From positions 1 to 64,000 of IMG/VR virus record IMGVR_UViG_3300032286_000925: a DNA stretch of 64,000 nt; one strand, 5' to 3'. Under the pieces are notes generated by a model. It saw nothing but the letters and a program-made list of their open reading frames with translations. It was not told where the DNA came from and did not search any database. A program made the translations under genes and the position numbers. Shown in pieces: positions 16,571 through 52,490 of this stretch. The DNA is from a virus. Numbering within the stretch: the stretch's first letter is position 1; every line of letters begins with the position of its first letter.

Positions 16571-16972
16571 TTAGACTATTGCTGGTTCTTTCGGTTCAGC
16601 AAGACTTTCTTCATACTGCTTTTGGAAGCGTTCGGCTTCTCTGGCGAGAACTTTTTTGGTCCAAGTTCCAAGTGGCTCATTGGAAACATTAGTTCCGTAG
16701 CCCACTACACTTTTTACAAAGTTAAAGGTGTAGGCAGACTTGTTAGACCAACTGCCGTCTTCTAACTGCTTGTTCTCGTAGTGTAGAGGTCCGTGTAGGC
16801 TTTCCCAAGTTTTGATGCGAGCATAAACCTCACCAACATTTTTCTTTGACACCGAACCGATACCGATAGCCATAAGTGCGAAAGCGAAGTATGCGATAGC
16901 GTTAGCGTCAGCCTCGTCTTCCAATCTAGCGTCAATGTTTGCTACGCTTTGAGCGTCCCAATTTAGCGACAT
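16571..16972 (-). CDS. Hypothetical protein
   Basis: GAGGAG RBS; cassette position. Confidence 0.8.
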   Translation of the reverse strand: MSLNWDAQSVANIDARLEDEADANAIAYFAFALMAIGIGSVSKKNVGEVYARIKTWESLHGPLHYENKQLEDGSWSNKSAYTFNFVKSVVGYGTNVSNEPLGTWTKKVLAREAERFQKQYEESLAEPKEPAIV

Positions 16973-20950: not shown

Positions 20951-21274
20951 CTACGCAGTTCTGATGTAGTCGTATTCGGTGGTTCGTAGAGTTTCTGCGT
21001 AAGCGTCTGGGAACTTCTCTTGTAGCAACTCTCGGTCAAACGAGGTGTTCTTACTGAATACTAGGCTGAAAGCCTTGATTTTGCCAAAGAACCCGATTGT
21101 CTTACCTGCTGGGAGAGAGGCTCGTAGGATTGCCTCGGCTTGTGCCTTGCGTTCCTTTGCGTCTTTCTCGTCAGCCTTAGCCTGAATAAAGTCAGCGTGG
21201 GCTTTCTTTACCTTGGCACTTGTGATGATAACTGCGTTCTCTGGCAGTTCTGGTGCGTTGTCGTTGTTAGACAT
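20951..21274 (-). CDS. Hypothetical phage protein
   Basis: AAGGA RBS; cassette position. Confidence 0.8.
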   Translation of the reverse strand: MSNNDNAPELPENAVIITSAKVKKAHADFIQAKADEKDAKERKAQAEAILRASLPAGKTIGFFGKIKAFSLVFSKNTSFDRELLQEKFPDAYAETLRTTEYDYIRTA

Positions 21275-22341: not shown

Positions 22342-22764
22342 CTAAACTATTGTTGGTTCCTCGGTTGGAACTATTACAGGTCTGATTACAGGCTTAGGCT
22401 CTACTAGCGTAGTTCTGGTGAAAGTAGATTGACCATACACTAAGTCGTGTCCAAGTGTGTCAGCCTCAATCTCAACCGAAGTGCCAGACTTTTCGCCATT
22501 ATCCCAATCACGAACTCGTAGCGTTCCTGAAACTATAATCCTGTCGCCTTTGCTGATTGAAGAAACAGCGTTTATCGCAAGAGTGCCGAAAGATGTAATT
22601 GTGAACCAATTTGTATAAGCGTCAATCCACTCCATTTCCTTTGGGTCAAACTTTTTGCTGGAACTTGCCAGACGGAAACTTGTGATATCTACTCCGTCTG
22701 CTGTTTTTAGGTGGCGTGGTGTTGTAGCCACTAAGCCTGTTGTTGTGTATTTGCTGTTATCCAT
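22342..22764 (-). CDS. ssb: Single-stranded DNA-binding protein (actinobacterial type)
   Basis: OB-fold: SFRLAS...W.D..TNWFT...LA.N...S.SKGDR..V.G.L. Confidence 0.92.
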   Translation of the reverse strand: MDNSKYTTTGLVATTPRHLKTADGVDITSFRLASSSKKFDPKEMEWIDAYTNWFTITSFGTLAINAVSSISKGDRIIVSGTLRVRDWDNGEKSGTSVEIEADTLGHDLVYGQSTFTRTTLVEPKPVIRPVIVPTEEPTIV

Positions 22765-22984: not shown

Positions 22985-23266
22985 TTAGTGTCTGACTAAT
23001 CCTGTGTCAAATCTAAGTTCGTCAGAAACAAGCCCACTCTGAACTTTCATTTTCCAACTGCTTAATTCTATTAATTGATAGGTAGGTAGTCCGAGAGCCT
23101 CGGCAATACAATCCAAGATTTCAGAGGAAACTTCTTTATGCCCTCGTTCTACTTCGGATAAATAGCCAAGAGCCACCGAGCCACGCTCGGAAACATCTCG
23201 CAAGTTTAGCCCGAGTTCGTGTCTGGTCTCTCTAATGACTTCGCCTAGTGCGTGTCTGAACTTCAT
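22985..23266 (-). CDS. ClgR-like XRE-family transcription regulator
   Basis: LG.VIR..R......LRDVS....VALGYLSEVERG.KE.SSE.L..I..AL matches the actinobacterial ClgR pattern. Confidence 0.85.
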   Translation of the reverse strand: MKFRHALGEVIRETRHELGLNLRDVSERGSVALGYLSEVERGHKEVSSEILDCIAEALGLPTYQLIELSSWKMKVQSGLVSDELRFDTGLVRH

Positions 23267-23532
23267 TATGCCTCGTTTCCGTAGAGCAGGTCTGGTTCTT
23301 GACCCACCGGTGTAAGTTTTGGTGTTGGCAGTTTATCTACTGCCATTTTGAGAATACCATAGAGTTTTCCGTCTAGGTCTTGTTCGCCTGCGACTACTTC
23401 ATCATCAGCCCAACGCCACTCGTCTAGGTCTGTGTCCCAGATGTCTCCGTCTCCTACTTCGTAGGTCTCAACATACCACTCATTAGTTTCCTCTTTGTAG
23501 GCGAGGACATAGTGAAAGTGTCTTCTAGCCAT
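23266..23532 (-). CDS. Hypothetical protein
   Basis: Translationally coupled; tail EPDLLYGNEA. Confidence 0.75.
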   Translation of the reverse strand: MARRHFHYVLAYKEETNEWYVETYEVGDGDIWDTDLDEWRWADDEVVAGEQDLDGKLYGILKMAVDKLPTPKLTPVGQEPDLLYGNEA

Positions 23533-23924
23533 TATGCCTCACCACCATACACGACATCTTGTTCTGGCTTGTCTGCCTTAGGTGGTTCAGGGTTAGGTGG
23601 CGAGTAATCCACTCCGTCGCAAGTGTAGTCGCCTGTATCAGCATTGAGCCACACACTAGGGCTATCAATCCAGCCCTCGTCAAATGTGTCAAGCCTGTCA
23701 GCCCACATACCAAACGAGCCTGAACCTATGCCAGAGTAGCCACCAAGAACTACCGAGAACTCGTGGAATAGTTCGGCAATGATATAGTTGTCGCCAATCC
23801 TGCCTGTTTTTTCTATGACATTATGGACAGCCTGTAAGTTGTCGCTACCTGACCAATGCCCATACATCACTATTAGATTTTCGTCTGTGTTGTTAGAAAC
23901 AACGATTAAAGACCTGTCGCCCAT
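23532..23924 (-). CDS. Conserved phage protein (MGDRS...YGHWSG)
   Basis: AAGGA RBS; tail EQDVVYGGEA. Confidence 0.8.
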   Translation of the reverse strand: MGDRSLIVVSNNTDENLIVMYGHWSGSDNLQAVHNVIEKTGRIGDNYIIAELFHEFSVVLGGYSGIGSGSFGMWADRLDTFDEGWIDSPSVWLNADTGDYTCDGVDYSPPNPEPPKADKPEQDVVYGGEA

Positions 23925-23972: not shown

Positions 23973-24329
23973 CTATTGGTCAAGTAGGTCTTGTTCCTCA
24001 CCACAGCCAGCACACTTTCTTTCGTAGTCCTCGCCTTTGACCTGATAGTCGTATTCGTAGCAATCATCACAACGCAGGTGTCCTAGTTCAGAGCTGATAG
24101 CGTCAGAGAACGCCTCCCATACAGGTTCTAAGGCACTACCACTACATAGTCCGTCAAACTCCTCAATAATCTTGTCCCACTCTGCCTTAGTGATGTTTCC
24201 GTATGGTTCTGTGCTGTTATGAACCTCAACTTCATCTATGGTGTAGCAGTAAGCCCAAACTTTTTGGTCAGGGTCTTTATCAGCAATCTTGGCGAACACT
24301 TCTGCCCACTCTTTCGCAGTTCTAATCAT
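23973..24329 (-). CDS. Zn-ribbon-tailed protein, paralog of 24322..24651
   Basis: Shared CDxC..YDY...CxxCGEE.DLL tail. Confidence 0.8.
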   Translation of the reverse strand: MIRTAKEWAEVFAKIADKDPDQKVWAYCYTIDEVEVHNSTEPYGNITKAEWDKIIEEFDGLCSGSALEPVWEAFSDAISSELGHLRCDDCYEYDYQVKGEDYERKCAGCGEEQDLLDQ

Positions 24330-24651
24330 TTAGTAAGTCCTCCTCCTCGCCACAATGACGACAGGTAGTTTCCTGTTCTTTTTCATCAGTAATACACTCG
24401 TAGTCATAGAGAGAACAGGTATCGCAATAGACATTTTTCTTGTTGTTGTCTGCCATTAGGTCGTGTAGATACTCTGAAACATAGTCCCAATCGCCAGAGA
24501 AGTCAGAGCAGAAGTCCTCCCAATCTTTATCGTTGATTTCACAGCCCTCAACGAAATAGTCTGCTAGTTCATCTTTTTCTGCCCAATGAACCCAGACCCG
24601 ACTTGTAGGGTCTAGTTTTTGTAATACCTCAATAAAGTCTTTGACTAACAT
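24322..24651 (-). CDS. Zn-ribbon-tailed protein, paralog of 23973..24329
   Basis: Shared CDxC..YDY...CxxCGEE.DLL tail. Confidence 0.8.
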   Translation of the reverse strand: MLVKDFIEVLQKLDPTSRVWVHWAEKDELADYFVEGCEINDKDWEDFCSDFSGDWDYVSEYLHDLMADNNKKNVYCDTCSLYDYECITDEKEQETTCRHCGEEEDLLND

Positions 24652-25281
24652 CTAATACACCACATCAGGTTCAGGCTGGTCGTTTTCCCGAGGGCAATCG
24701 TCATAGAGGTCGTCAGGGTCGCCACTATTACAGCCCCAGCACTCTTTATCTTGTGCCTCGTAGTCAGCGTGAGAGTTCGGGATATCCCACTCTTTCGTGA
24801 TAGTGAGTTCGCCTTTGTAGCCCGAGAGTTCAGCACCGAACCCTTGTTCCTCTTCCCAGTAGATATCAAAGTTCAGGTCGGGGAACTGCTCCACCATAGC
24901 CTCAAACACAGGCGAGGCTGGCGACCACGCTGTATCAAACCTATAAGTGAGTTCAGTATCAGTTTCACTATCTAGTGAGGGATTACAAGCGTCCCATTTG
25001 GTATCCCAGTTATCGTTGTTCCAGTTATACCAGTTGGTAGGAGTGTCGCCTTTCTGAACTCCATTTTCCCAACCATTAGTGCCGAAGTATTCGCCACTCT
25101 CAACTGCCTCTTCTGGTGGTGCTATGAAGTTCCAGAACGAGATGTCCTCTTTCTCATACTCAACGGAGTTAGTGTCAGAGTTCCAACTTTGTGGGTGCGG
25201 CTTTCCAGCCTGTTCTTTAAATCGTGCTATCTCTTCTTTTGAGCCAGAGATGTTGATTGAGGTATAAACCCAATTTGGCAT
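24652..25281 (-). CDS. YubB/DUF1281-like ferredoxin-fold protein
   Basis: MPNW start; WYNW...NW.TKW and FDTAWSP motifs. Confidence 0.85.
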   Translation of the reverse strand: MPNWVYTSINISGSKEEIARFKEQAGKPHPQSWNSDTNSVEYEKEDISFWNFIAPPEEAVESGEYFGTNGWENGVQKGDTPTNWYNWNNDNWDTKWDACNPSLDSETDTELTYRFDTAWSPASPVFEAMVEQFPDLNFDIYWEEEQGFGAELSGYKGELTITKEWDIPNSHADYEAQDKECWGCNSGDPDDLYDDCPRENDQPEPDVVY

Positions 25282-25393: not shown

Positions 25394-27187
25394 TTAGGCG
25401 TTTCGCCTACCAATCGTGCCAATGATATCAGCACAAGTTTTTCCAATCAGGATTGCTGATTGCTCTGGCGTAGAGCCAGCCAGAGATACAGCCTGACCAG
25501 AAGTTCCAGCAAGGTAAGTGTCTGGTGTTGTGGTGTTCTTATCAAAGGTCAGCCAGAGAACAGCCACACCTCGTTTGTCGCACTCTCTAATCCACTCTTT
25601 CGCCTTAGCAGGTTGAGTTCCCGAATAATGTCCGTCAGAAACGATTACCAGCAACTTCGCACCTCGGCTGTCCAGCAAGTTCATATGTCCGTCAAGAGCC
25701 ATAAACGCCTCATTAAACTTTTCAGTTCCGTCTGGTGCTGAATAGATATTGACATCATCTAATCTCTGACCAACTCGTAGGGTCGGGAACACTCCCTCGC
25801 CATAATAGACCATAGCAGTTCTCGCCTGAACCCTGCGACCTGCCTCTGCCAGAACCCACGCTGTCGTAGCCATAGGGTTCATAGCCTCACCCATAGAGCC
25901 AGAGATATCAACCATAACTCCGATTGAGAGTGTAGGCTCGTCAGTTTGTTTGCGAGTTTTATGTTCCCACATCTCAACAGGCACTCTAACGCCAACTGCC
26001 TCATACGCCTTTTTCTGAACCATTGACCGAGTTCTTAGACGACCTTGTGGCAGAGCCGAAGTTGTGAGTGAAACATCTCTCTCACGATACTTAGCCTTTT
26101 CTAACATCTGACCGACCTTGACCGAGGCAACTCGTTCTGACGAAGTAGGCTTACGAGTTTCTATCAACTTGGAACTTGATTTGCCATATGGCATTTCAGA
26201 CGAGGCTTTTGAGAACACTTTGGCACTAGCCTCTTTATTGCCCTCTCGTCTCTTGCCCTCTTCTTTTCTTTCTTTGACTTCTTCTTGGCGTTTCTCTTCT
26301 AACTCTTGGTCGCCTAAGTTGATAGTTGCTGTCCAAGCACTCTCGCCAGCAGAACTTTCCAAAGCCTCTTTGATTTTTTCTAACAACTCACTCGGGATTG
26401 AGAAACCACAATCGCCATTTTCAGTTTCCTCACCTTTTTCTTTTGCCTTTTCAGACACTAGGCGTTCCCACTCAATAGCCAATGGATAGAGGTCGTCAGC
26501 GTTAGCGTGTTTGTTGTGGTATTGAGCCTTACGCCATAGGTCTCTAAGTTGGTCATAGAGGTCTTGACCAAGACCAGCAACAACAATGTCTAGGATAGGT
26601 TTGACATCAGCGTAGTCAAGAACGCCACAATCAACACGACCACCGACCAGACCTGCCATTTGTGCGAAAGCCCTAGTGCCAGACATCTTTGCCAACTTCT
26701 CGTCAGTAAGGTCGCCAATCACGATTTCCATAGCCGAGGCTTTTAGGAAGTCAGCGTTCTCGGGGAAGTGAATAATGCCTAAGCCCTCAATGCGACTTTC
26801 CTCTAACAAGTGAAGTGCCTCGTTCTCATTTCGTTTCAGGTCTTTACTTGACTTGACTAAATCCCAGCGTGTAAATCTGGCGTGTAGAGCCTCGTGGAGT
26901 ATCGCACCTGTCGCCTTTGGAAACTCATACATCATTGACCTATCGTTTAGGTCGCCAACGATTTCAGGGTCAGCAATACCAAAAGCGTCTTTGGCATTGA
27001 CCTCAATCTCGGCAGTAGCAGGGTCAAATAGAGCAGATACAGGAGCAGACATATCAGCACCTACATAAACGACTAGGTCGTTTCTCTCTGCCCACTTATT
27101 TACAAGTCTGCCAATTTCAGAGCCGACTTTGAGCCACTCTTTCGGGGTTTCTTTTACTCCCGAGGTGTTTGTTCCGAAGTGTGTCAT
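25394..27187 (-). CDS. vWA-domain protein with N-terminal HExxH domain (CobT/MoxR-partner type)
   Basis: HEALH, LEESRIE, MIDAS DISGSM, IVSDG. Confidence 0.9.
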   Translation of the reverse strand: MTHFGTNTSGVKETPKEWLKVGSEIGRLVNKWAERNDLVVYVGADMSAPVSALFDPATAEIEVNAKDAFGIADPEIVGDLNDRSMMYEFPKATGAILHEALHARFTRWDLVKSSKDLKRNENEALHLLEESRIEGLGIIHFPENADFLKASAMEIVIGDLTDEKLAKMSGTRAFAQMAGLVGGRVDCGVLDYADVKPILDIVVAGLGQDLYDQLRDLWRKAQYHNKHANADDLYPLAIEWERLVSEKAKEKGEETENGDCGFSIPSELLEKIKEALESSAGESAWTATINLGDQELEEKRQEEVKERKEEGKRREGNKEASAKVFSKASSEMPYGKSSSKLIETRKPTSSERVASVKVGQMLEKAKYRERDVSLTTSALPQGRLRTRSMVQKKAYEAVGVRVPVEMWEHKTRKQTDEPTLSIGVMVDISGSMGEAMNPMATTAWVLAEAGRRVQARTAMVYYGEGVFPTLRVGQRLDDVNIYSAPDGTEKFNEAFMALDGHMNLLDSRGAKLLVIVSDGHYSGTQPAKAKEWIRECDKRGVAVLWLTFDKNTTTPDTYLAGTSGQAVSLAGSTPEQSAILIGKTCADIIGTIGRRNA

Positions 27188-27304: not shown

Positions 27305-28339
27305 CTAGATTTTGGCAGGTCGGCACTCTTCGCCAAATACCCTAGTCAAGACCTCAACAACCACAGGTCTATCATTTTCAGGCGAACAAGCAATCAAGTT
27401 CTCAATGGCGAACTTAGTGCCGAAGATGTCATTAGCCTTTTGGAACGCTAGAAGTTCTCGCATTTGAGGCGACCAAGAAACTTCACCAGAGGCTCGTTTC
27501 TTTGCTAGGTTTTGTGAGGCAGTAATGATTAGTGGAGTGATACCCATTTTGGTCTTAGCCATACCAAAGTCAGTAGTCATTTCCACTTGGATAGTGAAAC
27601 GAGAGAGCAGAGCCTCTGATAGACGAACACCAACAGCGTTAGGGTTGGTAGCACCGACCACATAGAAACCCTCTGCTGACTTCACAGGTTCTCTCTCGGG
27701 GTTTTGAGTGATAATCAACTCGTCTCTGCCGTCCATTACGCCATAAAGAGCCGAGAGAACTTTCGGGTCAATCAGACCAATCTCGTCAATCAACAAAACC
27801 TTACCCTCGGACATAGCCTTTACCAGAACTCCGTCAATCCACTCAAAGTCGCCACTAGGGGTCTGAACATAACCACCAATGAAGTCAGAGAGTTCAGTAT
27901 CACCAGAGCCGAGCAAGGTGTAAAGTTCATCAGGGAAACTAGCCTCAACGAGAGCAGTTTTGCCACAGCCAGCCTCACCATAGAGCAGGACATATTGTTT
28001 GTTGGTGCGACAGGTTTTCATAACCTCAACATCATCATTTTCAGTAGAACCCCACTTGCGAGTGAAGTAAGCCGAGCCATTTGGTCGCAGGTAAGAACCA
28101 GCACCGACCAAAGCGTCTTTCTCAACAATGCTAGGTGTAGAGCCACTCTCGCCAGCCGAGGCACGATTGGTGAGTTTGCTCGCAGGCGTGGAGTGAGTAT
28201 CTAGGTAAGCGTGATTTGCTAGGTCAGGGTGTAGGTGCTGACCAGCAGTAGCCATTAGCAATTCGCCCAAGCCCGAGTAGAGCCTGTCAGCGAGTTCTAT
28301 TGCCTGTAAAGGTGTAGTGATTTCAGTAATCGTTGTCAT
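27305..28339 (-). CDS. MoxR/CbbQ/NorQ-type AAA+ ATPase
   Basis: GEAGCGKT, LLIDEI, ATNP, ALLSRF; adjacent to the vWA gene. Confidence 0.92.
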   Translation of the reverse strand: MTTITEITTPLQAIELADRLYSGLGELLMATAGQHLHPDLANHAYLDTHSTPASKLTNRASAGESGSTPSIVEKDALVGAGSYLRPNGSAYFTRKWGSTENDDVEVMKTCRTNKQYVLLYGEAGCGKTALVEASFPDELYTLLGSGDTELSDFIGGYVQTPSGDFEWIDGVLVKAMSEGKVLLIDEIGLIDPKVLSALYGVMDGRDELIITQNPEREPVKSAEGFYVVGATNPNAVGVRLSEALLSRFTIQVEMTTDFGMAKTKMGITPLIITASQNLAKKRASGEVSWSPQMRELLAFQKANDIFGTKFAIENLIACSPENDRPVVVEVLTRVFGEECRPAKI

Positions 28340-48841: not shown

Positions 48842-49045
48842 TTAATAAACTATGTTCGGTTCTTCGAGCACACCGTGACGTTTTCTAGCAGCCATACACC
48901 CAGCCTCCCAAAGATGTCTAGCGTATTGGCCGTTAACCCCACCACTCCAAAGCTCAATGTTTTTAGTTCCATCTGCATTTCTTGCAAGGTTTTTCTTAGG
49001 AACCTCAAGATTACAGTTTGCACAGATGTAGTTATCAGTAGACAA
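48842..49045 (-). CDS. Hypothetical protein; C-terminus EEPNIVY
   Basis: Coupled ORF chain. Confidence 0.7.
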   Translation of the reverse strand: MSTDNYICANCNLEVPKKNLARNADGTKNIELWSGGVNGQYARHLWEAGCMAARKRHGVLEEPNIVY

Positions 49046-49322
49046 TGTCTGGCTCTTCTCTAGGTGCTAATCCAGATTCTTTAATCCAACGCTCAGCAAG
49101 GTCTACCTGAACCCCTTGGGTCAAAGTCAGGAAGTCAGTACTACCATCAAGAACGTTGTTATTAAAAAGGTGAATAAGTATTCTAGCATTTGAATAAGGG
49201 TCTCCAGGACCATCCTTCTTACTCTCCCATAGGTTCCTGTCATAGCTAGGAATACTGTAGTAGTTAGTGAGTCTGTACTTAAAGACTCCAGAATGCGAGA
49301 CTTCTACTTCATTAATAGACAA
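49035..49322 (-). CDS. Hypothetical protein; C-terminus EEPDIVY
   Basis: Coupled ORF chain. Confidence 0.7.
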   Translation of the reverse strand: MSINEVEVSHSGVFKYRLTNYYSIPSYDRNLWESKKDGPGDPYSNARILIHLFNNNVLDGSTDFLTLTQGVQVDLAERWIKESGLAPREEPDIVY

Positions 49323-49605
49323 TGTTCCCCTCTTCCTTGTTCAACACTATCAGTTCCGATTGCTTATACCAAGCACTGGATAAATATAACTTTTCGGGCC
49401 CAGTAAGGGCATCAAATGCCATCTGATCCATACCAAACAAAGCAGACCTAAACATATGCACTAAGAGTATCTTTTTATCCTCTTCTAGAGCATTTTGATA
49501 CCTATCTTGATTAGTAGTGCTAAGGCTAAAGAAGTTAGTGCAATCAAGAGTTTTACCTTTATACTTCATTCTCACTCTAGTAAACAACATCTGGCTCCTC
49601 ACCAT
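49312..49605 (-). CDS. Hypothetical protein; C-terminus EEGNIVY (start probably at the internal Met)
   Basis: Coupled ORF chain. Confidence 0.7.
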   Translation of the reverse strand: MVRSQMLFTRVRMKYKGKTLDCTNFFSLSTTNQDRYQNALEEDKKILLVHMFRSALFGMDQMAFDALTGPEKLYLSSAWYKQSELIVLNKEEGNIVY

Positions 49606-49759
49606 CCCAAAGACTCGGTCTTATCCCAGCCTTCTTAACTTCATCCAAAAACGTATTCAAATGCTCTAAGCTACAAAAATCTCCCCAATGCGTAGTTGGG
49701 TACTTAGGCATATTACTGGCAATAGTTTCGCCACATTCGTTGCAAATAGGTTCTTTCAT
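49577..49759 (-). CDS. Zn-finger-like protein; C-terminus EEPDVVY
   Basis: CNEC...FCS..H. Confidence 0.7.
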   Translation of the reverse strand: MKEPICNECGETIASNMPKYPTTHWGDFCSLEHLNTFLDEVKKAGIRPSLWDGEEPDVVY

Positions 49760-49798
49760 ACTCTAACCTTACCGACGTCGACGACATTTGTCAACTTC

Positions 49799-49993
49799 TT
49801 AATAGACAATATCTTCTTCTTCTGCATTATCAAAAGCTAGCTCACACTGCCCGGAACAGACAGCCACAGTGTCCTCTGGAAAAGTGTCCCAATCGTACTC
49901 AGACAACCACCTAGCACAGAACCCACAGCGAATCCGCTTAATGTCCCAACTAAGGTCTTTGCTAACAAAACTCTTTCTAGTTCTACGAAACAT
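49799..49993 (-). CDS. Zn-finger-like protein; C-terminus EEEDIVY
   Basis: CGFC...CS..C. Confidence 0.7.
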   Translation of the reverse strand: MFRRTRKSFVSKDLSWDIKRIRCGFCARWLSEYDWDTFPEDTVAVCSGQCELAFDNAEEEDIVY

Positions 49994-50125
49994 TTTTAAT
50001 CTTTCTTTGAGCTCTTTTAGCCTGTTCGTACAGACGCTTCTTTTGCATCTGGCGATTGAAGCGAATCTCTTTCATGAGTTTTTCATATTCTTCATTTGTC
50101 ATTTGTCATTCTTTCTTTATGGACG

Positions 50126-50199
50126 TCGAGGATGTCGGACTTGAACCGACGACCGAACGATTATGAGTCGTTTGCTCTAACCTGCTGAGCTAATCCTCG
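50126..50199 (-). tRNA. tRNA with CAT anticodon (elongator Met or Ile2)
   Basis: Full cloverleaf: acceptor CGAGGAT/ATCCTCG, D stem GCTC/GAGC, AACGA-CTCATAA-TCGTT, T loop TTCAAGT; no encoded CCA. Confidence 0.92.
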
Positions 50200-50537
50200 C
50201 TTATAAGCCACTCTATCAGTTCTGGATTATCTCGCATAACCATAATCAACGAGTTCTCCCATACACCAATAAAATAATGCTCCCAAGCTTCAAAATCATC
50301 CGATTTCTTTGGCTTGACAGAGTTATCAAAAATCATCCTAGCTGCGTGGAGGACTTCGTGCATAACAGTCACTTTCTTCTTGCTTACATGCATCTGAGAG
50401 TCTATCACGATGATATTCTGTGTGTCAATAGTATAACCATAACTACCGTCATTTAACATACCATCTTGCTTTTGGGTACGCTCGATGATCTCGAAGACTT
50501 GCACTCCGATTTTAACGCTTTTAGGGAACTCAGCCAT
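50190..50537 (-). CDS. Phage HExxH metallopeptidase-like protein
   Basis: TVMHEVLHA; GGAGG RBS. Confidence 0.8.
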   Translation of the reverse strand: MAEFPKSVKIGVQVFEIIERTQKQDGMLNDGSYGYTIDTQNIIVIDSQMHVSKKKVTVMHEVLHAARMIFDNSVKPKKSDDFEAWEHYFIGVWENSLIMVMRDNPELIEWLISED

Positions 50538-51667: not shown

Positions 51668-51741
51668 GTGACCCTGTAGGAGTCGAACCTACGACCTGTG
51701 CGATCTAATTGCACCGCTCTTGCCAACTGAGCTAAGGGGCC
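51668..51741 (-). tRNA. Atypical tRNA or pseudo-tRNA; apparent anticodon TAG (Leu) on a short-variable-loop body
   Basis: Canonical D and T arms (GTAGG-TTCGACT-CCTAC); mismatches in the acceptor stem and at 31-39. Confidence 0.7.
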
Positions 51742-51761
51742 AACCAGATGCGCTCTGGCGG

Positions 51762-52010: not shown

Positions 52011-52147
52011 TAATCAGTAAGTCCCGTAGGAAGGCTACTTCGCCCAGTAATCTGGGTATTCCCGGGTGCGGTTTACTGAGTTGCAACTACTCCCAAAGAC
52101 GAAACAGTGGGCGGAGTTATCTACGCCTAGTTGCCATAACGTAGCAG

Positions 52148-52490
52148 TGGAGATGCGGGGAATCGAACCCCGGTCCAGTTAAGGATCTATTGTTCTTCTA
52201 CAAGCTTAGGTAGTTTATGTTACGGCTTAGATGTGTGACCTACCAGACCATCTAGTCGTTACCACTCTTTAAAGTCTTGTGGGAGAGACTTTTGTTTTGT
52301 CCTACTTATTTAAAACCTGACTGCCCACCTAGAACTAGTGCTTTGTCAGGGGCCTAAGCGTTGCGATTAAATCACGCGGCTAGAGCGTATGCAGATGTAT
52401 TAGCATTTATTGTTTTGACAGATTCAAGAGATACTGTCATCTCTGCTTGCTTCACCAATTTCAGAATAACTGTCGAAACCAGTCATCCCC
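52148..52490 (-). ncRNA. ssrA: tmRNA with tag peptide (A)ANTSAYALAA
   Basis: 5' GGGGATGACTGGTTTCGAC; 3' GGTTCGATTCCCCGCATCTCCA; ATAAAT precedes gct-aat-aca-tct-gca-tac-gct-cta-gcc-gcg-tga. Confidence 0.95.

Follow-up and report, generated by a model that had tools for sequence, protein, structure and literature searches.

Unrelated proteins can dock on one partner through a shared acidic-aromatic tail at their C-termini, as gp2.5 and gp4 of phage T7 do on gp5, and the clamp-binding tails of phage T4 and the C-terminal tip of SSB, the bacterial protein that binds single-stranded DNA, follow the same docking principle, which is thus already known. Phage proteins tuned to the SSB tip have been described, namely Sak4 and SSB of HK620 (PMC5928155), as has the matching of RecT with the SSB tip (PMC13490951), and the bacterial beta-clamp motif has been given as QL[SD]LF (reviewed in PMC11139829). 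Here we report a C-terminal peptide tag, EE-x-[DN]-[IV]-V-Y, on a run of small proteins encoded in a 64,000-nucleotide stretch of viral DNA (the window), which makes up the opening 64 kb of one virus contig of 95,385 bp (IMG/VR record IMGVR_UViG_3300032286_000925; estimated completeness, 71%). The comparisons described below indicate that this tail is a genuine C-terminal short linear motif, selected as a peptide. We propose that it acts as a common docking handle for one partner, a reading to which we give about even chances.

Five consecutive open reading frames (ORFs) of the window end in the tag and a sixth lies 24 kb away, all on the minus strand and with the positions and endings that a sequence-only reading of this DNA had listed. 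They are g1 (49799..49993; 64 amino acids, zinc-ribbon-like with CxxC...CSxxC; tag EEEDIVY at 49802..49822), g2 (49577..49759; 60 amino acids, zinc-ribbon-like with CxxC...FCSxxH; tag EEPDVVY at 49580..49600), g3 (49312..49605; 85 to 97 amino acids; tag EEGNIVY at 49315..49335), g4 (49035..49322; 95 amino acids; tag EEPDIVY at 49038..49058), g5 (48842..49045; a CxxC protein of 67 amino acids; tag EEPNIVY at 48845..48865), and g6 (24652..25281; 209 amino acids, Api92/YubB-like [DUF1281_C, Pfam, 1.1e-10]; tag PEPDVVY at 24655..24675), the last being the gene directly after a MoxR-vWA pair. Searches of Pfam and PHROGs returned no family for g1 to g5. When the C-termini of the whole contig were compared with shuffled sequence, [DN][IV]VY was the ending of six stop-to-stop ORFs (minimum length, 40 amino acids) and of none in any of 20 shuffles.

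The carriers had been called largely unrelated, which holds for all pairs but one. With the tails removed, g3 and g4 proved to be distant paralogues (24% identity over 74 amino acids; E, 1e-3), and the other pairs showed no similarity; even g1 and g2, which both have the zinc-ribbon look of CxxC...CSxx[CH], share no sequence similarity. Paralogy as the origin of the shared tail was rejected on this tail-less comparison, except for g3 and g4. The six tails listed at the outset were correct, but related ones had been missed. In four genes on the minus strand (23266..23532, 23532..23924, 23973..24329, and 24322..24651), the motif sits slightly before the end, the tails being EPDLLYGNEA, EQDVVYGGEA, EEQDLLDQ, and EEEDLLND, and orthologues of these genes end in GEEKEIVY in the related contig G007 and in GEEKEVV or GEEEEVV in the related contig G001. 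The other two cases were the SSB of the phage (EEPTIV) and the product of 16571..16972 (KEPAIV), which are described below.

Related phages keep the tail. The closest relative, IMG/VR contig 3300042301_003072 (G006/L083), was found with the g4 protein and has the same array as the window plus one additional gene of 48 amino acids. Its orthologue of g4 (78% identical) ends in EEPDVVY, that of g2 (92% identical) in EEPDIVY, and that of g3 in EEDNIVY. The ending EEEDIVY of g1 recurs in G006 (with GTC replaced by GTT) and in L204, and the orthologue in G001/L003 ends in EEPEIIY. For g5, which has no overlapping start, the ending is EEPNLVY in G006 versus EEPNIVY in the window, despite changes in five of the seven tag codons (GAA to GAG, CCG to CCA, ATA to CTA, GTT to GTA, and TAT to TAC). 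The synonymous variation noticed earlier in the window (ATT, ATA, GTT, and GTG; GTC, GTT, and GTG; TAT and TAC) is indeed all in use, and it extends to every position among 59 distinct tagged proteins (GAA 26 and GAG 25; GAC 19 and GAT 17; TAC 35 and TAT 24; CCA, CCT, and CCG), in which all three stop codons occur. The logo of these 59 proteins is N-G-E-E-P-[D/N/E]-[I/V/L]-V-Y, with E at position -6 and Y at position -1 invariant; at position -4, a quarter of the tags have N instead of D.

The family of g6 provides the strongest evidence for selection at the peptide level. Among the 120 best homologous clusters of this Api92-like protein, 21 end in [PEQ]-E-[PK]-[DN]-[IVLM]-[IVL]-Y at 49 to 93% identity, and four further clusters end in EE[PA]Q[IV]IYQ, which together with the 21 span 48 to 93% identity to g6; homologues at about 55% identity or less mostly have other endings. 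Counted from the C-terminus of the 21 representatives, the last seven positions show an entropy of 0 to 1.5 bits, against 2.6 to 3.1 bits for the preceding 15, and in the Api92-like genes the next start is located past the stop. The g5 pair, the 59 tagged proteins, and this entropy profile place the conservation at the level of amino acids rather than nucleotides. In an AlphaFold2 model of g6 built with 30 homologues, a two-lobed domain (residues 1 to 176; mean predicted local distance difference test score [pLDDT], 90) is followed by a coil tail (pLDDT, 56 to 73), and a fold search with the model gave a single match, Api92 (2ijr). The tag is thus predicted to be an exposed flexible end, as a docking peptide should be.

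The tag had been regarded as an encoded label and not merely an artefact of a ribosome-binding site or start codon. Our results support this, but the second role of its codons, which they play at about half of the junctions, was underrated. In line with the earlier account of three overlapping and three free tails, a TTG within the tail opens the next ORF at three junctions (g2 to g3, g3 to g4, and g4 to g5), and the tails of g1, g5, and g6 are free of an overlapping start; that of g1 is followed by a gap of 39 nucleotides, and the ATG of a C5-methyltransferase gene lies 7 nucleotides past the stop of g5. The overlapping tags read GAR-GAG-CCA-GAY-RTT-GTN-TAY-stop, the TTG lying within RTT-GTN and GAGGAG seven bases upstream of it. 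The start of g4 is a TTG (49322) lying within ATT-GTC in the g3 tag, and that of g5 is the TTG (49045) inside the g4 tag. The start of g3 may be either a TTG at 49587, within the g2 tag, or an ATG at 49569; the codons of the g2 tag hold GAGGAG together with ATG and TTG candidate starts for g3.

We examined 27 tags from six contigs in this respect. In fourteen, an embedded TTG opens an ORF of 40 codons or more, two form TAATG overlaps, and 11 lack an overlapping start. In these 11, the hydrophobic pair is coded by ATA, CTA, CTT, ATC, GTG, and ATG, as opposed to RTT-GTN in the overlapping ones, and ATT-GTC-TAC is dominant in the codon counts across tags. Hence, in the GAGGAG-N7-TTG form, the tag codons double as a Shine-Dalgarno site and the next start at about half of the junctions, and the tail is both a peptide and a nucleotide signal, peptide first. 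The small genes are tightly packed because the same 24 bases serve as tag, Shine-Dalgarno site, and start. Furthermore, the repeated junction may be a place for cassette exchange between phages, judging from the family mosaics in the arrays.

Some minor features of the junctions are worth recording. Genes that start at the embedded TTG begin with M-S-T/I-D/E, since their first codons are dictated by the V-Y-stop of the preceding gene, and the additional CxxC gene of G006, located between g4 and g5 (L083:4284-4623), has this forced start and a VIVY end. At operon-ending tags, (AC)TTGACA comes immediately after the stop; this was seen after g1 (49760..49798, minus strand) and in G007 after 25310 and 24142. 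After g1, TTGACA is followed by 17 nucleotides, TAAGGT, 6 nucleotides, and the ATG of g2, a spacing with which g2 would open a leaderless transcript; the TTGACA behind g1 was not picked up by a simple promoter scan. We also weighed a +1 frameshift site at TAC-TGA and set it aside, as its Shine-Dalgarno spacing and re-pairing would be unlike those of the prfB type.

Only one clade of uncultured actinophages carries the tag, on about ten proteins per genome. A degenerate DNA pattern of the overlapping form matched one clade only in IMG/VR, apart from a single isolated match. In the JGI/ENA metagenomes, 23 stretches matched; 12 belong to the clade, most of them with arrays of two to seven tagged genes, and the remaining ones are lone matches without a tagged ORF. 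When bacterial and archaeal genomes totalling 596 Gb were scanned with the tag pattern, five scattered single matches in unrelated taxa turned up, and no tagged host proteins or prophages. The tag is absent from the cultured relative, Actinomycetia phage DSL-LC01, a scan of viral contigs with the g3 protein gave no match, and a literature search with the tag peptides returned nothing relevant. Eighty loci retrieved via the neighbouring C5 methyltransferase are mostly tag-less, because that gene is widely shared.

Within the clade, arrays comprise two to eight consecutive tagged genes. G007 and the related contig G008 each encode some 13 tagged proteins, arranged as two clusters: one consists of eight consecutive small genes with the endings EEPDIVY (four times), EEPNIVY, EEPEIV, EEPDVVY, and EEEEVIY, and the other, located after MoxR-vWA, has EEPDVVY, EEKEIVY (twice), YEPNLI, and EEPNLIY. 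The 62 tagged proteins that we collected fell into 22 BLAST families, the sets and order of which differ between the arrays of the contigs, and the carriers include an OB-fold SSB, the Api92-like fold, and several zinc-ribbon proteins. The 141-amino-acid protein of G007 that ends in YEPNLI (24847..25272, minus strand; L102:5847-6272) starts with MDRKIYEEPDLV, so that a tag-like motif also occurs near an N-terminus.

The tag had also been likened to the acidic-hydrophobic tails of SSBs, and the SSB of the phage itself lends this likeness unexpected support. This protein (22342..22764, minus strand; PF00436, 1.5e-15) has the tip ...PTEEPTIV, a form of the tag without Y, and no start overlaps it. 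SSB tips in relatives within the tag clade are EEPAIV, EPEPEIV, and PEPEMV, and more distant, tag-less phages have EPE-x-ELV. Among the best 150 related SSB cluster representatives, 62 end in PF and none has a tag-like end, so this lineage has swapped the usual PF tip for EEP-x-I-V. A protein of unknown family (16571..16972, minus strand; 133 amino acids) has a similar Y-less tip, ...EPKEPAIV, and its family ends in EP-x-[AIVL]-V in all four genomes, the tips of the homologues being EPKEPAVV, GIEPVAV, and QAEPALV.

A second SSB-like protein is encoded in the contig beside the RecA-like gene (75030..75566, minus strand; L085:11030-11566). It matches PHROG 378 ('single strand DNA binding protein'), contains a long linker rich in Pro and Ala, ends in PADAPF, and has a homologue in DSL-LC01. 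Two kinds of tip thus coexist in this phage, and the tag resembles the unusual one. The coexistence suggests that the tag is a signal separate from the usual SSB tip, and a tip switch beside a PF-tipped second SSB-like protein points to two orthogonal tip-reader pairs within a single phage. Because the tag resembles the swapped tip, whatever reads that tip is most likely also the reader of the tags, and this likeness is the best clue to the function of the tag.

We then compared the tag with the described docking tails. The tags combine two or three acidic residues with a Tyr at the end, and the SSB, with a tip that lacks an aromatic residue, is the sole recognisable replication-protein carrier. 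Somewhat as in T7 gp2.5 and gp4, a short acidic tail, predicted to be flexible, lies at the extreme C-terminus with an aromatic residue at its end in the tags, and one of the carriers is an SSB. The T7 tails are read by one partner, the gp5 DNA polymerase, and reading by one partner is what we propose for the tag. In contrast, T7 has two carriers, whereas here each genome has about ten and the families number about 22; its tails end in Phe after a long acidic run, unlike EEPDIVY, and the SSB version found here has no aromatic residue at all; and the carriers described here are mostly small proteins in variable arrays.

The SSB tip (e.g., DDDIPF) likewise places an acidic-hydrophobic end at a free C-terminus after a disordered stretch, where it serves as a hub signal, and the PF00436 SSB of the phage bears a tag-like tip. 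However, the P-F end is replaced by [IVM]-V in the SSBs and by [IV]-V-Y in the tags, and here the tip occurs on non-SSB proteins, one carrier being an SSB and the others having no SSB domain. The C-termini of gp43, gp33, and gp55 that bind the T4 clamp gp45 are another case in which one short C-terminal motif brings unrelated proteins to a hub, but the tag logo contains neither the Q nor the L-x-L-F of clamp motifs, and the number and kind of carriers differ. A search of the contig, which is 71% complete, for a beta-clamp domain found none.

Other peptides with a Tyr at or near the C-terminus are less similar. In the HbYX motif of proteasome activators, Tyr is penultimate, preceded by a hydrophobic residue and followed by any residue, whereas it is last in all 59 strict tags, only a few variants in G001 having a residue after Y. 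The mycofactocin precursor MftA, the precursor of a ribosomally synthesized and posttranslationally modified peptide, has a C-terminal Val-Tyr, and such short precursors are encoded beside a radical-SAM maturase, but the tag carriers are folded proteins of 50 to 250 amino acids, and a search of the contig for a Radical_SAM domain gave nothing. A PDZ domain search of the contig showed that none is encoded there, and a PDZ protein of the host may conceivably read the tag.

As a mechanism, we suggest that the flexible, exposed tail would dock all carriers into one pocket of a common partner, with the acidic residues and the terminal carboxylate making polar contacts and the I/V-V-Y end filling a hydrophobic pocket. 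The partner would most likely be whatever reads the EEP-x-I-V tip of the SSB, whether a protein of replication or recombination, the MoxR-vWA pair of the same operon, or a hub of the host. Replication and recombination proteins are candidates on the analogy of T7 gp2.5 and gp4 with gp5 and of Sak4 with SSB. We give a low probability to a reader of the SSB tip that acts in replication or recombination, and a slightly lower one to a host hub. The tag may further be the address label of a phage client system that delivers swappable small effectors or adaptors of about 22 families to one machine, although we give this view a low probability; with the same reserve, we suppose that the machine of such a system, which could be the MoxR-vWA pair or a replication hub, also reads the SSB tip and that the junction lets tagged cassettes move in a ready-to-express state.

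Several observations weigh against a simple docking handle. The resemblance between the SSB tip and the tag spans five to six residues and does not include the invariant Y. Four proteins of the window phage bear the motif two to four residues from the end, and G001 has tails with one residue after Y (IIYQ, IIYS, and IIYA) as well as tails with no Y (EEKEVV and EEEEVV); hence Tyr need not bear a free carboxylate in every case, and a simple model of a C-terminal pocket loses weight. In addition, the next start overlaps with about half of the tags, and part of the nucleotide conservation thus has a cause other than the peptide.

One pair of candidate readers consists of the MoxR-type AAA+ ATPase (27305..28339, minus strand) and the vWA protein (25394..27187, minus strand; 597 amino acids). 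The tag and the acidic SSB tip would then be handles for client capture by this pair, the metal of the metal ion-dependent adhesion site (MIDAS) binding an acidic residue or the terminal carboxylate and the ATPase then remodelling the client. vWA MIDAS sites have been described to bind extended unstructured peptides, which MoxR releases (Kaur, Burroughs, Iyer, and Aravind, 2020; PMC7159879), and the predicted coil tail with its tag makes an acidic, extended peptide like those bound there. The MIDAS residues D427, S429, and S431 are invariant, as is an HExxH motif at residues 98 to 102. A tag cluster lies directly downstream of the pair in every sufficiently long tag-bearing contig, the SSB coming next in the operon, and the Api92-like gene joins the pair in a conserved triad, with the genes in either order, at about 60 of the 80 related viral loci, often with an SSB 2 to 3 kb downstream. 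One tag cluster thus adjoins a MoxR-vWA pair with a conserved third gene, which recalls the described vWA/MoxR client systems. Against this stand the triads that are common in tag-less relatives, MoxR-vWA in DSL-LC01 included; a second tag array 20 kb distant; the quarter of the tags in which position -4 is N and not D; and the only three residues that are specific to the vWA proteins of the tag clade, all of which lie in the N-terminal HExxH domain and none near the MIDAS. Moreover, no shared client tag is described for those client systems. We regard this pair as a doubtful reader.

Other explanations dispense with a docking partner. The peptide could have no function, the conserved unit being a 24-base junction that couples translation and is spread by recombination, with the nonoverlapping tags as leftovers. 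Such a junction would fit the TTG that opens an ORF of at least 40 amino acids in 14 of the 27 tags, the GAGGAG seven bases before it, the dominance of ATT-GTC-TAC in the codon counts, and the arrays that are family mosaics joined at these very junctions. We nevertheless consider it unlikely, given that nonoverlapping tags use different codons and are kept via synonymous and conservative changes (as in the g5 pair), that the Api92-like tags are kept in 21 clusters at 49 to 93% identity with the next start past the stop and variable residues before them, and that the SSB tip has no usable start nearby. It is also improbable that the tail is a C-terminal degron by which a host or phage protease clears a set of early proteins on one schedule. 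The small carriers in early-looking operons, the transfer-messenger RNA (tmRNA) encoded by the phage, and two proteins with HExxH (the vWA protein and the product of 50190..50537) would suit this idea, as would the extreme C-terminal position, which is typical of degrons such as ssrA-type tags. However, known C-terminal degrons are apolar (ssrA-type L-A-A), while the tag is acidic and ends in Tyr: the logo reads E-E-P-D-I-V-Y, whereas the tmRNA of the phage itself encodes ...YALAA. Besides, SSB, which is needed throughout replication, has a related tip, and BLAST with HslV of DSL-LC01 revealed no ATP-dependent protease gene in the contig.

A signal for loading into the virion, which would bind the procapsid interior so that its carriers enter the virion and are injected along with the DNA, rests on analogy and seems distinctly improbable. 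The arrays do vary between relatives, as do the internal-protein loci of T4, which are variable arrays of small unrelated proteins with only a short targeting peptide in common and in which a shared coding stretch may aid cassette exchange, and the cargo peptides of encapsulins are C-terminal and bind an HK97-fold shell. But the capsid-targeting sequence of T4 is N-terminal, cleaved, and found with head-assembly genes, whereas the tag is C-terminal and found in early or DNA-metabolism operons. The tagged genes lie far from the structural module, among genes of the DNA-metabolism or early type and on the strand of the replication genes; nothing connects the tag with capsid genes, and the resemblance to the SSB tip points another way. 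Finally, the last seven residues before the stop might act in cis as a nascent peptide that slows release and favours reinitiation on the next gene, an idea that the packed operons, with the next start overlapping or 0 to 39 nucleotides off, bring to mind. It is very unlikely indeed, as the motif also occurs one to four residues from the end and is kept at operon ends, such as that of g1 with a gap and a promoter-like TTGACA behind it, and no arrest peptide is known to resemble the tag.

If one partner reads the tag, as the docking proposal holds, a seven-residue peptide would be a direct handle on a hub of the infection cycle in phages of abundant, hard-to-culture freshwater actinobacteria, and a function would be tied to about ten 'hypothetical' proteins per genome together. 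The tag adds a clear case with strong comparative evidence to the few phage short linear motifs exemplified by the T7 and T4 tails and the SSB tip, and its interest lies in this clean comparative evidence and in the concrete lead given by the SSB tip switch. The 24 bases that are protein tag, ribosome-binding site, start codon, and stop are also an instance of multilayer coding, which may account for the compact and mosaic arrays.

The contig is a phage of the siphovirus type (with terminase, tape measure, and minor tail proteins). Its replication genes encode a PolA-type DNA polymerase, a primase-helicase, a helicase, nucleases, and a RecA-like protein, and it also encodes a class II ribonucleotide reductase, two DNA methyltransferases, the MoxR AAA+/vWA pair, two tRNAs, and one tmRNA. 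The polymerase is closest to that of DSL-LC01, which came from lake water (77% identical), followed by those of Microbacterium and Arthrobacter phages, and WhiB-like genes are present in the contig; on these two grounds, the host is very probably an actinobacterium. The tag-bearing phages form a small uncultured group that probably infects freshwater actinobacteria. DNA comparison with INPHARED found no close relative, a tRNA being the sole match.

Some neighbouring genes may be mentioned as well. Close to the tag array lie a full-length tmRNA (52147..52490, minus strand; Rfam, 134 bits) with the tag peptide ANTSAYALAA, and genes for tRNA-Met and tRNA-Leu (50125..50199 and 51668..51742, both on the minus strand). 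Directly upstream of the array, 50190..50537 (minus strand) encodes a 115-amino-acid protein with an HEVLH motif and a weak Pfam match to the putative metallopeptidase DUF6782; it occupies the same place in G006 and in G001 (57% identity). Lastly, 20951..21274 (minus strand) encodes a clade-wide protein of 107 amino acids (58 to 87% identity) that matches a RecE-like exonuclease PHROG in its C-terminal part only (6.5e-8).

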